Virus record (IMG/VR): IMGVR_UViG_2534682222_000019
Location: 1-7,169 of that record
DNA: 7,169 bases
Source of the DNA: a virus
Lineage: Duplodnaviria > Heunggongvirae > Uroviricota > Caudoviricetes
Strand: one strand, 5' to 3'
The notes below the pieces were generated by a model. The model was not told the DNA's origin, did not search any database, and saw only the letters and a program-made list of their open reading frames with translations. The position numbers and the translations under genes were made by a program. Of this stretch, positions 2,733 through 7,169 are shown one piece after another. Position 1 is the first letter of the stretch, and the number at the start of each line of letters is the position of its first letter.

Positions 2733-2775
2733 CCCATCAACCCCGCCATTTCGGTTCAAGGTTGATGGGTTTTTT
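2733..2775 (+). terminator. Rho-independent terminator, probably for ybjL
   Basis: Perfect 10-bp stem CCCATCAACC (2733-2742) / GGTTGATGGG (2760-2769) with a 17-nt loop, followed by TTTTTT (2770-2775). The orientation is productive only for plus-strand transcripts. Confidence 0.6.
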
Positions 2776-2855
2776 GTTGCCTGAAATTTAAGCTGTTTAA
2801 AATCATGATGTTAGAAACACTGTTTTTTAACGATGGCGACAAAATGGCGGCAGCG

Positions 2856-3074
2856 TCAAAGAGAGAGCGCCACCTGTCCTGATTTCATTGGATGCGGCTG
2901 AACCGGATTTGACTCTTTTGGCGTTGCAATCGAACGAACAAAAGTTTCATGGGTAACAAAAGTATGGCTGCAGTTAATGTTCTGGCACTGGTTGTAACGC
3001 TCTTTGGTCAATGAAGATACCTGAAAACTGCTGCGAGTATGGGCGGCACTTCCACACAGTGGGCAAATCATCAT
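2856..3074 (-). CDS. ogr: Ogr/Delta-family zinc-finger late-gene transcriptional activator (72 aa)
   Basis: Start trimmed from the six-frame ORF to the ATG at 3074, which has a GGGGAG Shine-Dalgarno about 10 nt upstream. The product MMICPLCGSAAHTRSS...KERYNQCQNINCSHTF carries the Ogr-type C-X2-C-X22-C-X4-C zinc-binding motif and has the same length as P2 Ogr. Confidence 0.9.
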   Translation of the reverse strand: MMICPLCGSAAHTRSSFQVSSLTKERYNQCQNINCSHTFVTHETFVRSIATPKESNPVQPHPMKSGQVALSL

Positions 3075-3111
3075 TTTTCGAGTTCTCCCCATTTTTGCTA
3101 AATTCACAATA

Positions 3112-3164: not shown

Positions 3165-3704
3165 TCATTCCATTTCGAAATCATCAATCCTCACTTCAAG
3201 CTCCAGACTGGTTGTAAAACCGTTATCGGGGCTGACGGTATGCGTCAGAGTCGTAATGGTCCATTCCGCATCATCTACCCGGCTGATGGCCCAGCGGGCG
3301 TCACGCCATAAATCACCGCTGGCTTCCGCCAGTTCCTCGCCCCGCTTCACACCGGATGCCGTGGTGTCATAGTCCTGGTAACGTTCGTTGAGCATGGCGC
3401 GTGCCCAGCAGTAAACCGCGTTGAAATAGTGCTGAATGCGCTCACTTTTGCCGTCCAGCTGTTCCGCCGGAACCTCTGCCAGCGAGGCATACCCCAGCAT
3501 CTGCTGGCGTCTGCGAAACTCATACAGCTCTGCGTTGACCTCCGAAATTGCCGACAGCGCAACCTGCTTTAAACGCGGCTGCGTCACCGTGCCGTCAGTG
3601 CGCATGACACTGCGAAACTCCGACAGGTCCACATCAGGCCAGAACGGCGTATTTCTGATGATTTCCGCCTGTTCCGGTGCCTGTTCTGGCGCAACAAACT
3701 TCAT
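3165..3704 (-). CDS. L: P2 gpL-like head completion/stabilisation protein (179 aa)
   Basis: Start trimmed to the ATG at 3704, preceded by AGGAG 8 nt upstream; the six-frame ORF extends further to a non-ATG start. Similar to remembered P2 gpL, including the ELWRDARWAI and NTPFWPDVD motifs. Confidence 0.85.
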   Translation of the reverse strand: MKFVAPEQAPEQAEIIRNTPFWPDVDLSEFRSVMRTDGTVTQPRLKQVALSAISEVNAELYEFRRRQQMLGYASLAEVPAEQLDGKSERIQHYFNAVYCWARAMLNERYQDYDTTASGVKRGEELAEASGDLWRDARWAISRVDDAEWTITTLTHTVSPDNGFTTSLELEVRIDDFEME

Positions 3705-3799
3705 GCTGCTTTCTCCTGAAATAGAGGGCGGTGGACGGGGTTTTGATGTGGCAGTGCCTTTCGCCACCCCGTGCCGCCCGTGCGCGGGGGCACGTTCTG

Positions 3800-4453: not shown

Positions 4454-5512
4454 TTACGCTCCGGTTTCGGCTGCGGCGGCGCTGAAATCACCAATCTGGA
4501 TGTTTTCCACCAGTGCGGCGCAGCGGTAGTCCTCAACCACATAGGCTTCGTTAACGGATTCAAAGTTTTCAATCCGGTCACGTTTCGGGTTGTCGATAAC
4601 TGAACGGCGGCGGGTGTCTTCCTGCCAGTAGATGGACAGGTTATCCAGACGGGTGATCAGCAGCGCATTCGGCGGGAAGAACGGCGCACGCACGGCCTGC
4701 AGGCCACCCATGCGTTTCTGACTGATGATCATATCGGCAGCCAGTTTTTCACTGTTTTCCTGCTCTTTGTTGACCAGCGGGAAATACTTGTCAGACAGCA
4801 GTTCACGACCGCAAATCACCACCAGATCGTCATCGTCCTGATAGACCACGTCGATAAGCTCATTAACGGCATCCATCACCACGGCGTCCAGGTTGGCATA
4901 TTCGCCACCTTTCCCGACTTTCACCGCACCCGGTGTGGTTTCACCGCCCGTGGTGGTGCTGCCCATGACGTGATCCGGTGCATCCTCACGGATTTTCTGC
5001 AGCCAGCCTTTATTCACATCCTGCAGTAACGGGTTTTCGCTACGGTTGGAGGTTTTCGCACGCTTCACGCCGTTAAAGCCAATCATGATGCGGTCCAGTG
5101 CCTGACGTTTCACGATGGCGTCACGGATACGCACCTGAAAATCCTGAAACTTCGCCCACAGGTCCAGCTTCGCGTAGGTCAGTACCGTGTCAAAGTTGGT
5201 CTGCTCGCATTTATATTCCACATCGACCATCAGCGTCGGATCGACAGGTTCACGCTCTTTCGCGGTGGTATCAGTGGTTCCGGCAATGGTGCTGCCAACT
5301 CCCAACCCCAGCAGCTGACCGGACTGCTCAGTCACTGGCGTGACGTTAATCAGCGTCAGGAAAGCGGCGGACTGCTGGATCTGGTCTTCCAATGTCTGCT
5401 GCACGGACGGCTCTACGGTGAACTTGCTGGACAGTTCTTCAACTGCCACACCGTTCAGACGCGCCAGTTGCTGCAGGTAAGCGTTAAAAGCAAAGCGGGT
5501 ATTCTTCTTCAT
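4454..5512 (-). CDS. N: P2 gpN-like major capsid protein (352 aa)
   Basis: ATG at 5512 and TAA stop at 4454-4456. Similar to remembered P2 gpN along its whole length (TRFAFNAYL...KFTVEPSV...MIGFNGVKRA...GKGGEYANLDA.VMDA...KYFP.VNKEQ.NSE.LAAD.IISQKR...NLSIY...VEDY...GDFS). Confidence 0.92.
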   Translation of the reverse strand: MKKNTRFAFNAYLQQLARLNGVAVEELSSKFTVEPSVQQTLEDQIQQSAAFLTLINVTPVTEQSGQLLGLGVGSTIAGTTDTTAKEREPVDPTLMVDVEYKCEQTNFDTVLTYAKLDLWAKFQDFQVRIRDAIVKRQALDRIMIGFNGVKRAKTSNRSENPLLQDVNKGWLQKIREDAPDHVMGSTTTGGETTPGAVKVGKGGEYANLDAVVMDAVNELIDVVYQDDDDLVVICGRELLSDKYFPLVNKEQENSEKLAADMIISQKRMGGLQAVRAPFFPPNALLITRLDNLSIYWQEDTRRRSVIDNPKRDRIENFESVNEAYVVEDYRCAALVENIQIGDFSAAAAETGA

Positions 5513-5539: not shown

Positions 5540-6025
5540 TCAGAGTGTCAGCGGGGGCGTCAACCACACAAACCGCAGGCGGGGAAAGCCTTCATTCAAG
5601 GTTGTAGGTTTGTGCCATGAACACCACACTGACACCCGCAGATCTCGATCCCCGTCGGCAGGCCATGCTGCTGTACTTTCAGGGATACCGCGTACCGCAC
5701 CTGCAGCAACACGCCCGATCTCTGCGGTTGCACTCATGACGTAATGTGGCAGTTTCTCTTTTGCCACCTCATTAATCGGTACGCATGGCAGGCAGTGAAT
5801 CTGAGCCAGAAAACCATCTACCAGCGTTGAATCTTCAGTCAGATCGGTAAGCAGCCAGATTTCTGGTGCGGTTAATAAATGAGGTTGCGCTGGGTTCAAC
5901 TTGTTCCGCAGAATCTGCACATTCATGCCAGCACGTTCTGCCAGTTGCACCAGGTTGTGGCGCAATGCGAATGCACGACAGGCTTCATCAAAATGTGGAT
6001 GTTTGGAAACTTGGTAATCAAACAT
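5540..6025 (-). CDS. cII: Phage 186 CII-like (CP76 family) regulatory protein (161 aa)
   Basis: Start trimmed from a TTG to the ATG at 6025, with GAGG upstream. The N-terminal roughly 120 aa ([24 protein letters not shown]...[25 protein letters not shown]...) match the 186 CII / CP76 family as recalled. The C-terminal roughly 40 aa look atypical and overlap the cos-like sequence. Confidence 0.8.
5567..5614. other. cos-like core (AGGCGGGGAAAGC, 5577-5589) inside an 8-bp inverted repeat (CACAAACC 5567-5574 / GGTTTGTG 5607-5614)
   Basis: The 13-mer is identical to the central part of the 19-nt P2/P4 cohesive end as I remember it (GGCGAGGCGGGGAAAGCAC). The flanking inverted repeat is read directly from the sequence. 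It sits at the cII 3' end, upstream of N. Confidence 0.4.
5611..5628 (-). promoter_or_regulatory. TGT-N12-ACA dyad; possible Ogr-responsive late-promoter element upstream of N
   Basis: The minus strand reads TGTGGTGTTCATGGCACA, about 100 nt upstream of the N start. This fits the P2 late-promoter dyad consensus, but the motif is short and could occur by chance. Confidence 0.2.
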
Positions 6026-6057
6026 GGTCAATGCCTCTGATGTATTTCAGAATCGAA

Positions 6058-6279
6058 CTAATTAAGGTTTAGATTGCATTCTGAAAGCGCATCAACGGTC
6101 ATTGCTGCTATGTTGATCATCACTTTTTCGCGTTTTTTATCTTTGCGCAGACGGTGACGGATAAGGCGTCCATCAGCCAACATGTCATTGATGGTATCGA
6201 TGGATAGCCCTGTCAGCTCGCTATAGCGTTCAATAGTCACATGGGGGGTGGTAAGAGTGATTGAAATGTTAGGTCTCAT
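6058..6279 (-). CDS. Cox/Apl-like small helix-turn-helix excisionase/regulator (73 aa)
   Basis: ATG at 6279 with GAGG upstream. It is the first gene of the leftward operon and sits immediately upstream of cII, as apl does in 186. The HTH segment [24 protein letters not shown] resembles the P2 Cox DNA-binding region. Confidence 0.65.
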
Positions 6280-6404
6280 GATGCAACATTCCTCGTTTAA
6301 TGATGATTAATCAGGACGAATACGGATCGTTTGTATTTTGTGAACACCATAAACATACGATCGCACAGTGAAATCGTAAAGATAAAAGTTCACTTGGAGT
6401 GACC
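6280..6404. promoter_or_regulatory. Immunity switch region between the divergent cox/apl-cII operon and cI
   Basis: 125-bp AT-rich intergenic region between divergently transcribed regulators. It contains a perfect 10-bp palindrome TGATTAATCA (6304-6313), a CGATCG palindrome (6358-6363) and an imperfect direct repeat ATACGGATCG / ATACGATCG (6320-6329 and 6355-6363). Exact promoters were not resolved. Confidence 0.5.
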
Positions 6405-6974
6405 ATGAATTTGGAGAAAGGCGGACGAGGCGCTATAGAGCGCATGGTAGAAGCTTATGGATTCAAGACTCGACAGGCGTTGTGCGATCATTTAGGAATC
6501 TCTAAAAGTACACTCGCCACACGCTACATGCGTGACTCATTCCCAGCAGAATGGGTAATCCAGTGCGCCCTTGAAACAGGCACCTCGCTTAATTGGCTCA
6601 CAACCGGGCATGGTTCAAAGCAAACTTCAGGTAATACAAATACTATGGAAGTTGCTAAATATGTATTATCTGATGGGGCCTTGTGTGAAGACGGTTTTTA
6701 TATTTTCGATAGAGAATTTCTACCGTCGGCATTCAAGAATCTTTTTGTAATCACAGATAATAATTCTGAATTTATTTGTGATAAGGAATTTGATGATATA
6801 CGTGATGGTAAATGGGTAATAAGTATTGATGGCGAAATAACGATCCGTGACATTACTCGTTTACCCGGTGGAAGAATCTTCGTCGAGGGTGGAAACAGAG
6901 CCTTCGAGTGCAAGATAGAAGATGTTGAAATAATTGGGAAAATTATAAGTTTAACAATTAAGTACGTTAGGTAA
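6405..6974 (+). CDS. cI: Phage 186-type CI repressor (189 aa)
   Basis: Start trimmed from a GTG to the ATG at 6405, with GGAG 5 nt upstream. The N-terminal HTH domain (EAYGF...L..HLGISKSTLATRY.R...P....IQCALETGTSLNWLTTG) matches the 186 CI family as recalled, and the length is close to the 192 aa of 186 CI. Confidence 0.85.
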   Translation: MNLEKGGRGAIERMVEAYGFKTRQALCDHLGISKSTLATRYMRDSFPAEWVIQCALETGTSLNWLTTGHGSKQTSGNTNTMEVAKYVLSDGALCEDGFYIFDREFLPSAFKNLFVITDNNSEFICDKEFDDIRDGKWVISIDGEITIRDITRLPGGRIFVEGGNRAFECKIEDVEIIGKIISLTIKYVR

Positions 6975-6989
6975 TACCGGGAGGAAACT

Positions 6990-7169
6990 ATGCTTGGTAA
7001 GGTATTTTTTGTGGTTTTATCATGCTCTTTGTTATTAAACCCACTAACTACCTATGCTAAAAATTATCCTTGTTCTGGGAAAAAGGGAGGTGTCTCTCAC
7101 TGTACCTCCGATGGAAAGTTCGTTTGCAATGATGGAACTATTAGTAAATCAAAAAAAATCTGGGTAATG
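6990..7169 (+). CDS. 5' part of an ORF for a small signal-peptide-bearing, Cys-containing protein (truncated by window end)
   Basis: ATG at 6990 with GGGAGG 5 nt upstream and no stop before the window end. The product [23 protein letters not shown]|[26 protein letters not shown]... has a typical N-terminal signal peptide. No family was recognised. Confidence 0.5.

Follow-up and report, generated by a model that had tools for sequence, protein, structure and literature searches.

Among P2/186-type phages, the lytic promoter is covered by the main operators of the repressor, and those of Apl/Cox are situated between the two transcription start sites (PMC7498355). The P2 C repressor is about half as large as CI and not alignable with it (PMC3448106), and it binds direct repeats (PMC2995052). 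Regulatory regions of the 186 type were listed by Nilsson et al. 2011 (PMC3448106) for PhiECO1 (E. coli HS), PhiECO2 (E. coli C ATCC 8739) and PhiSEN1 (S. Typhi CT18); the three are treated there as a single probable immunity class, in which CI identity exceeds 96% and the 125-nt spacers are 98–100% identical (PMC3448106). Membership of PhiECO2 and PhiSEN1 in this class was taken from that paper (PMC3448106), and the sequence comparison made here was with E. coli HS only. Here, one copy of such a region is described from the window, by which we mean the whole stretch of DNA analysed (7169 nt):

6280–6404, no strand: cI/apl spacer, switch region of the PhiECO1 immunity class, 125 nt

An earlier note on this DNA had marked the span 6280–6404, which is exactly the spacer from the apl/cox start codon (complement, 6277–6279) to the cI ATG (6405), and had read it as a 186-type switch with cI and apl/cox-cII on opposite strands. 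This is supported by the CI domains, the CII identity, the gene order and the promoter geometry, and the region is very probably a transcriptional switch of the 186 type (CI-Apl/Cox-CII) from a temperate phage of the PhiECO1 immunity class, surviving in a deletion remnant beside ybjL, with facing promoters, CI acting over pR and the Cox-like protein between the starts. The spacer is identical at 124/125 positions to that of PhiECO1 of E. coli HS (region fetched), the single difference being position 6378 (A in the window, C in HS); the apl-position proteins are 100% identical and CI agrees at 187/189 residues. Since the spacer is one base from PhiECO1, which Nilsson et al. 2011 had listed, the switch is already known, as a member of this catalogued immunity class, and the window copy is unlike that of E. 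coli HS in its gene losses and in the 6378 C->A change. The same switch was found in 657/5426 complete E. coli genomes, E. coli B/BL21 included. The same-class sample used below consisted of 55 distinct sequences and the diverged same-class relatives L006, L009 and L010 (~11% spacer divergence), together with L007.

Phage 186 has the same gene order, the same two CI domains and the same inverted repeat at its CII site, and differs in the low identity of its CI (32%) and in having a spacer that cannot be aligned with that of the window. P2 resembles the window in its facing promoters (Pe, Pc) and in having a Cox-type excisionase/repressor as the first lytic gene, but is without CII, whereas the window has a 189-aa CI-type repressor and cII; a P2-type (C-Cox) switch was rejected on the basis of the latter two features, and a connection with P2 Hy dis, a defective prophage of E. 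coli B, was rejected because the switch of that prophage has P2-type C repressors. The regulatory region of the Fels-2/SopEphi group (Felsduovirus) is of the 186 type, its early operon contains a dam gene and its pR reads TTGACG-17-TAGTAT; the group differs in immunity class and spacer and in its 82-aa Apl, and SopEphi is without GATC in the pR spacer.

Prophage remnant and regulatory genes

The left part of the window is made up of the E. coli genes grxA, ybjM and ybjL, and a decayed P2/186-family prophage occupies the window from ~2770 onward. Its features outside the regulatory region are the following:

2856–3107, minus strand: ogr
3165–3767, minus strand: fusion ORF, L-like (head completion) N-terminal part and putative late-control gene D end, 200 aa
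3800–4450, minus strand: M
4454–5512, minus strand: N
~5693, no strand: deletion junction, cII (after ~codon 111) joined to a fragment of scaffold gene O

Scaffold gene O is present as a fragment only, between N and the junction at ~5693, and the order after the junction is truncated cII, apl/cox, cI and a small YdcA-family ORF. The C-terminal part of the fusion ORF appears to be the end of late-control gene D; D-family proteins are annotated beneath the matches of the window in E. coli genomes. Judged by its gene content, the prophage is a deletion remnant, and it appears to contain two internal deletions, one at the cII/O junction (~5693) and one at the apparent L–D fusion (3165–3767). Alignment to the window begins only at 5693–5695 in all fetched relatives, and matches to intact prophages reach 5694–5699, the features annotated there including a capsid scaffolding protein of the GPO family. 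Both deletions in one place were absent from every complete E. coli genome in the collection searched. Compared with the intact relative E. coli CFSAN061762, the genes lost include fil, dam, the replication endonuclease gene, portal, terminase and tail genes; the window copy thus has no early or replication genes, has lost some of those for the head and lacks most of those for the tail. In intact relatives (e.g. E. coli CFSAN061762) the prophage lies between ybjL and rcdA; the window shows the ybjL junction only, and the prophage of E. coli HS adjoins rcdA, which is the far side of the site in CFSAN061762.

The 14-bp attachment core ATGGGTTTTTTGTT was found at both prophage ends (window 2765–2778; L106 ~11937–11950). 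Beside each copy of the core stands ATGGCGACAAARTGGCGGCAGCG (window 2832–2856; L106 11821–11845), which agrees with the 186 Int arm-site consensus YAYCGCCAYTY read in reverse complement, and attL contains two 13-bp direct repeats (AACTTATTGTTTT) 21 bp apart. Directly after cI, at the place of int in 186, there is a small ORF (6990–7169) with a signal-peptide-like start, which the annotation of relatives assigns to the YdcA family and which belongs to PHROG 6000 (function unknown); it has the appearance of a cargo gene transcribed together with cI. As the alignments of all relatives end at 7162, the window differs from them in its last 7 bases. Between its portal gene and its early region, the E. 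coli B copy (L108, strain C2566; 1907–3955 and 5541–6986) carries a retron (St85-family reverse transcriptase and effector), and it has an independent deletion likewise ending inside cII, by which cII is fused to a truncated replication endonuclease gene.

It had also been proposed that the element is mosaic, with P2-like structural genes, and this did not hold: N, M and L are equally distant from 186 and P2, with identities to the 186/P2 homologues of 59/59% (N), 49/49% (M) and 40/39% (L part), and the structural genes of 186 are themselves annotated as P2 homologues. By these identities, the element is a separate lineage of the family and not a P2–186 hybrid.

The regulatory features are:

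6405–6974, plus strand: cI, 186-type two-domain immunity repressor, 189 aa
6058–6279, minus strand: apl/cox-position gene, Cox-like excisionase/repressor by profile, 73 aa
5540–6025, minus strand: cII, truncated, homology stopping near 5693 (~codon 111)
5999–6025, no strand: inverted repeat ATGTTTG-N13-CAAACAT, counterpart of the 186 CII-binding site at pE

In the ORF map, cI is divergent from apl/cox-cII, as annotated in 186 and relatives. CI (WP_001047321) matched PF07022 (E=3e-33) and PF16452 (E=9e-27), both above the cut-offs, as well as the 186 CI structures PDB 2FJR (E=4e-31) and 2FKD (E=3e-14), and can be compared with 186 CI end to end (175 aa, 32% identity). No peptidase S24 domain in CI passed the cut-off (PF00717, 16.7 bits against a cut-off of 23.3 bits), and a self-cleaving repressor of the lambda/LexA type was rejected on this ground. 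The recognition-helix sequences of CI are near-identical across immunity classes with wholly different spacers. The apl-position protein was placed in PHROG 575 'Cox-like excisionase and repressor' (E=6e-31); it gave no Pfam match and only a weak 20-residue match to 186 Apl, and it represents another Cox/Apl subgroup (73 aa), without real similarity to the 186 protein. A single-sequence AlphaFold model of the Cox-like protein (pLDDT 52) was too poor for use and was discarded. CII matched PF06892 (E=2e-37; profile positions 1–111 of 146 covered) and is 78% identical to 186 CII over residues 1–111. Past ~codon 111, the reading frame runs into unrelated sequence from the deletion reaching the capsid-scaffold gene, and the truncated CII is probably inactive in this copy. 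The inverted repeat at the cII start is the strongest dyad in 5990–6800, and the same arms are found inside the annotated 186 CII site.

Predicted promoters and candidate CI operators

Promoters were predicted with a relaxed consensus scan and by comparison across 22 relatives, a procedure which recovers the annotated 186 pR (TTTACT-17-TATATT in the 186 record) and pL (TTGCGA-17-CATGAT) as top matches. With the standard promoter scan (threshold 9/12), nothing was obtained in the spacer. Two elements were predicted:

6261–6289, plus strand: predicted lysogenic promoter (pL-like), −35 TTGAAA 6261–6266, 17-nt spacer, −10 CAACAT 6284–6289
6352–6380, minus strand: predicted lytic promoter (pR-like), −35 TTTACG 6380–6375, 17-nt spacer, −10 TATGTT 6357–6352

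Both match only 8/12 consensus positions, and the predicted starts (~6296 for pL, ~6345 for pR) rest on consensus and conservation. Relative to the apl start codon, the pL-like element is placed just as the annotated 186 pL is, the −35 hexamer lying inside the first apl codons at equal spacing to the start codon in both phages. The pL block is invariant in heteroimmune relatives, although the adjacent coding DNA is ~20% diverged: TTGAAA-17-CAACAT is the best plus-strand match in 9 relatives, in 12 more the variant TTGAAA-17-CAGTAT/CAATAT ranks first or second on the plus strand, and a pL-type match is thus within the top two plus-strand matches in 21/22 relatives scanned. For pR, the element of the window is the best minus-strand match in the scan, and TTGAC(G/A)-17-TAnnnT is the best minus-strand match in 19/22 relatives, L009 and L010 showing it with a weaker hexamer. 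The pR −35 hexamer is TTGACG in most same-class sequences and TTTACG in the window; the 6378 C->A change responsible for this is of the down type. Among close relatives, the A at 6378 is shared by L027 only, and the diverged L009 also reads TTTACG. The earlier note had named the facing, interfering promoters of 186 and P2 as something to test here, and a facing arrangement is what the in silico predictions give, with the geometry of the annotated 186 pL and pR. The predicted transcripts overlap by ~50 nt (~63 nt from the annotated 186 hexamers), and the promoters of the window are ~14 bp closer than those of 186 (62 vs 76 nt between the −10 hexamers).

Four features in and beside the predicted lytic promoter bear on the operators:

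6325–6362, no strand: 38-bp imperfect palindrome GATCGTTTGTATTTTGTG-AA-CACCATAAACATACGATC, centre 6343.5, on the predicted pR start
6356–6378, no strand: 23-bp dyad TACGATCGCAC-A-GTGAAATCGTA, 1 bp from the midpoint of the pR spacer, including CGATCG
6363–6369, no strand: variable spot at the centre of the 23-bp dyad, mainly 6367–6368
6388–6404, no strand: FL/FR-like near-palindrome GTTCACTTGGAGTGACC, overlapping the cI ribosome-binding site

The 38-bp palindrome pairs at 14/18 arm positions (78% complementary) around a 2-nt loop (P 0.002–0.003, shuffles), is kept in L006, L009 and L010 at 13–14/18, and is flanked by two GATC sites (6325–6328 and 6359–6362). In the 23-bp dyad, 9/11 arm positions pair (82%), and the experimentally defined central operator of 186 likewise pairs at 9/11 at the same position, 1 bp from the midpoint of a 17-nt pR spacer. 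The dyad gave P=0.0017 in a promoter-centred test but only P=0.06 in an unbiased test across the spacer, and its symmetry is lifted from 8/11 to 9/11 by the 6378 C->A change. A general rule by which each class would have a dyad at the middle of its pR spacer was rejected, as such a dyad was seen only in this class, L024 and 186, with the others at chance level. The variable spot is the most variable of the 1470 bp shared with 81 close relatives, with 14 different 7-mers among the 55 distinct sequences (next highest anywhere, 7). Symmetry-preserving change at the dyad centre was considered and rejected: CATCATG is the sole compensatory allele, and most variants break the innermost pair. CACAGT, CACGGT, CATCAT and CACAAT are among the natural alleles at the centre.

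The third candidate, GTTCACTTGGAGTGACC, agrees at 9/10 positions (match 6389–6403) with the 186 FL/FR pattern TTCAC-N5-GTGAA, which the annotated 186 FL and FR both fit perfectly, and a site of this type is thus common to 186 and the window. It is the only match in the window with <=1 mismatch (0.19 expected), and the half-site pentamer occurs 3 times in the spacer (0.26 expected, P=0.002). The site is present in L006, L007, L009 and L010 and absent from the heteroimmune classes. Distal CI sites like FL and FR, which in 186 stand ~300 bp to each side of pR, were searched for with the 186 pattern and with the 23-bp dyad and were not found: within 1.4 kb of pR there was no second TTCAC-N5-GTGAA match (<=2 mismatches), and distal matches to the dyad were limited to chance-level ones with 3 mismatches. 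The window also contains no B-type CAATTG palindrome of the kind present in 186. The centres of the three candidates (6343.5, 6367 and 6396) are 23.5 and 29 bp apart and not 21, whereas the three pR operators of 186 are two helical turns apart, and the candidates share no common sequence and are unlike one another. The 38-bp palindrome, over the predicted pR start and −10, the 23-bp dyad and the FL/FR-like site are nevertheless the most likely candidates for CI targets.

Strong palindromes were also observed near pR in other immunity classes. In the spacer of L002 (phage vB_EcoM-813R9) there is GTACCCAATTGGGTAC, close to the TCTCCCAATTGAGAGA core of 186; the pR spacer of L011 contains the palindrome ACCAAATGGT and that of L024 the dyad ACGACCACTT-A-AAGTGATCGT. 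Other classes thus have strong palindromes of their own at this place, with the CI recognition helix nearly constant.

Other readings of the spacer

The perfect 10-bp palindrome TGATTAATCA (6304–6313) and the CGATCG palindrome (6358–6363) had been located correctly in the earlier note, and the imperfect direct repeats which it mentioned are present (ATACGGATCG at 6320–6329 and ATACGATCG at 6355–6363), as are further imperfect repeats at 6295 (GTTTAAT), 6305 (GATTAAT) and 6315 (GACGAAT). The latter three make up a further feature:

6295–6321, plus strand: three 7-mers in 10-bp phase (GTTTAAT, GATTAAT, GACGAAT), tentative Cox/Apl box array

As one possible reading, to be taken as tentative and on balance unlikely, TGATTAATCA would belong to a direct-repeat array of the Cox-like protein, with repeats about one helical turn apart between the two starts; bound to 6295–6321, the Cox-like protein would repress the cI promoter and perhaps pR, like Apl in 186. 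The position of the array and its 10-bp phasing agree with the rule for Apl/Cox operators (PMC7498355), a 186-type array being expected to have direct repeats every 10–11 bp. The corresponding zone of five heteroimmune spacer types, all with a near-identical N-terminal half of Cox, again contains a GATTA core. Against this, a 10-bp-phased chain of three is not significant (P=0.13), the GATTA motif was selected after the sequences had been inspected, and L002 and L004 have it on the other strand. As the excisionase must also bind at attL, an array would be expected there too, but the attL arm of an intact relative showed no motif enrichment or phasing (8 matches vs ~6 expected).

A second reading, which we consider doubtful, starts from GATC at positions 13–16 of the 17-nt pR spacer: as a Dam site, it would allow methylation to modulate the lytic promoter or repressor binding. 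GATC stands at exactly this position in 22/22 promoter-scanned relatives and in L007 (23/23 fetched, L002–L025), the rest of the spacer differing, and it forms no TG extended −10 element; the second GATC bounds the 38-bp palindrome. A dam gene is found in the early operon of intact relatives, and by tblastn in the flanks of 11 further heteroimmune relatives (within L011–L025), and Dam has been reported to favour SopEphi excision via an unknown target (PMC7380047). The site is not universal, however, as SopEphi has GATT there and 186 has no GATC (the window being set apart from 186 by its GATC sites at pR as by its truncated cII), and GATC may just be part of a conserved operator arm (ACGAT/ATCGT). 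The pR GATC was rejected as the cause of the Dam dependence of SopEphi excision, SopEphi reading GATT at that position. An extended version is less probable again, namely that the two GATC sites make the switch Dam-sensitive, with hemi- or unmethylated DNA read differently by CI or RNA polymerase, and that the variability at 6363–6369 reflects an arms race over operator affinity between related phages. If this were true, the switch would read unmethylated or hemimethylated DNA differently just after infection or replication.

The third reading takes up the earlier note, which had offered TGATTAATCA and CGATCG as candidate CI or Apl operators; that the two are themselves the CI operators is improbable to a still higher degree. 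Both sequences are truly palindromic, TGATTAATCA is unchanged in 55/55 distinct same-class sequences and in the diverged L006, L009 and L010, and CGATCG lies inside the predicted pR spacer. Neither, however, beats chance: a perfect palindrome of >=10 bp was obtained in 13.8% of shuffles of the 125-bp spacer (P=0.14), the whole window contains five of these, and 6-bp palindromes number 2 in the spacer (2.2 expected). An unchanged 10-bp sequence is not unusual either, because spacer divergence is only ~11%. CGATCG is altered to CGATCA in L006, L009 and L010, where only the GATC core is kept, and is the GATC-containing end of larger dyads. As to position, TGATTAATCA lies between the predicted starts (~6296 and ~6345), ~32–41 bp downstream of the predicted pR start and thus outside both promoters, whereas main repressor operators cover the lytic promoter (PMC7498355). 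The comparison with the 186 operators, proposed in the earlier note as a check, was also negative, with neither palindrome resembling the annotated 186 CI sites.

Finally, action of the symmetric sequences as RNA hairpins (in the cI/apl leader or overlapping antisense transcripts, or by masking of the cI ribosome-binding site) is very improbable, since neither predicted leader gains in folding over its shuffled versions (z=−0.19 each), although TCACT-TGG-AGTGA (6390–6402) could form a 5-bp stem over the Shine-Dalgarno sequence.

Proposed working of the switch

The preferred reading remains a switch of the 186 type with CI over pR. By analogy with 186, a weak lysogenic promoter on the plus strand would drive cI, and a lytic promoter on the minus strand, its start ~50 bp from the other, would drive apl-cII. 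CI would bind over the lytic promoter, by which pR would be turned off and its interference with the cI promoter relieved, and the Cox-like protein would bind between the two start sites. The homologies and order of the genes, the promoter-like sequences with their conservation and the repeat statistics are results of this analysis; the binding assignments and the promoter interference are inferred.

In this copy, as far as can be read from its genes and promoters, the lytic arm is dead, because cII is truncated, the genes from cII to O (replication genes included) are deleted and the pR −35 hexamer carries a down-type change. The switch probably now does little here beyond keeping CI expressed, and would thereby confer superinfection immunity.

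By this analysis, a very common E. coli prophage remnant is assigned to a known switch family and immunity class, which is of little significance beyond annotation, and testable promoter and operator coordinates are supplied for the 186-type class. Experiments might be worthwhile on two points only, the conserved GATC at the predicted lytic promoter and the mutational hot spot in the middle of the dyad.
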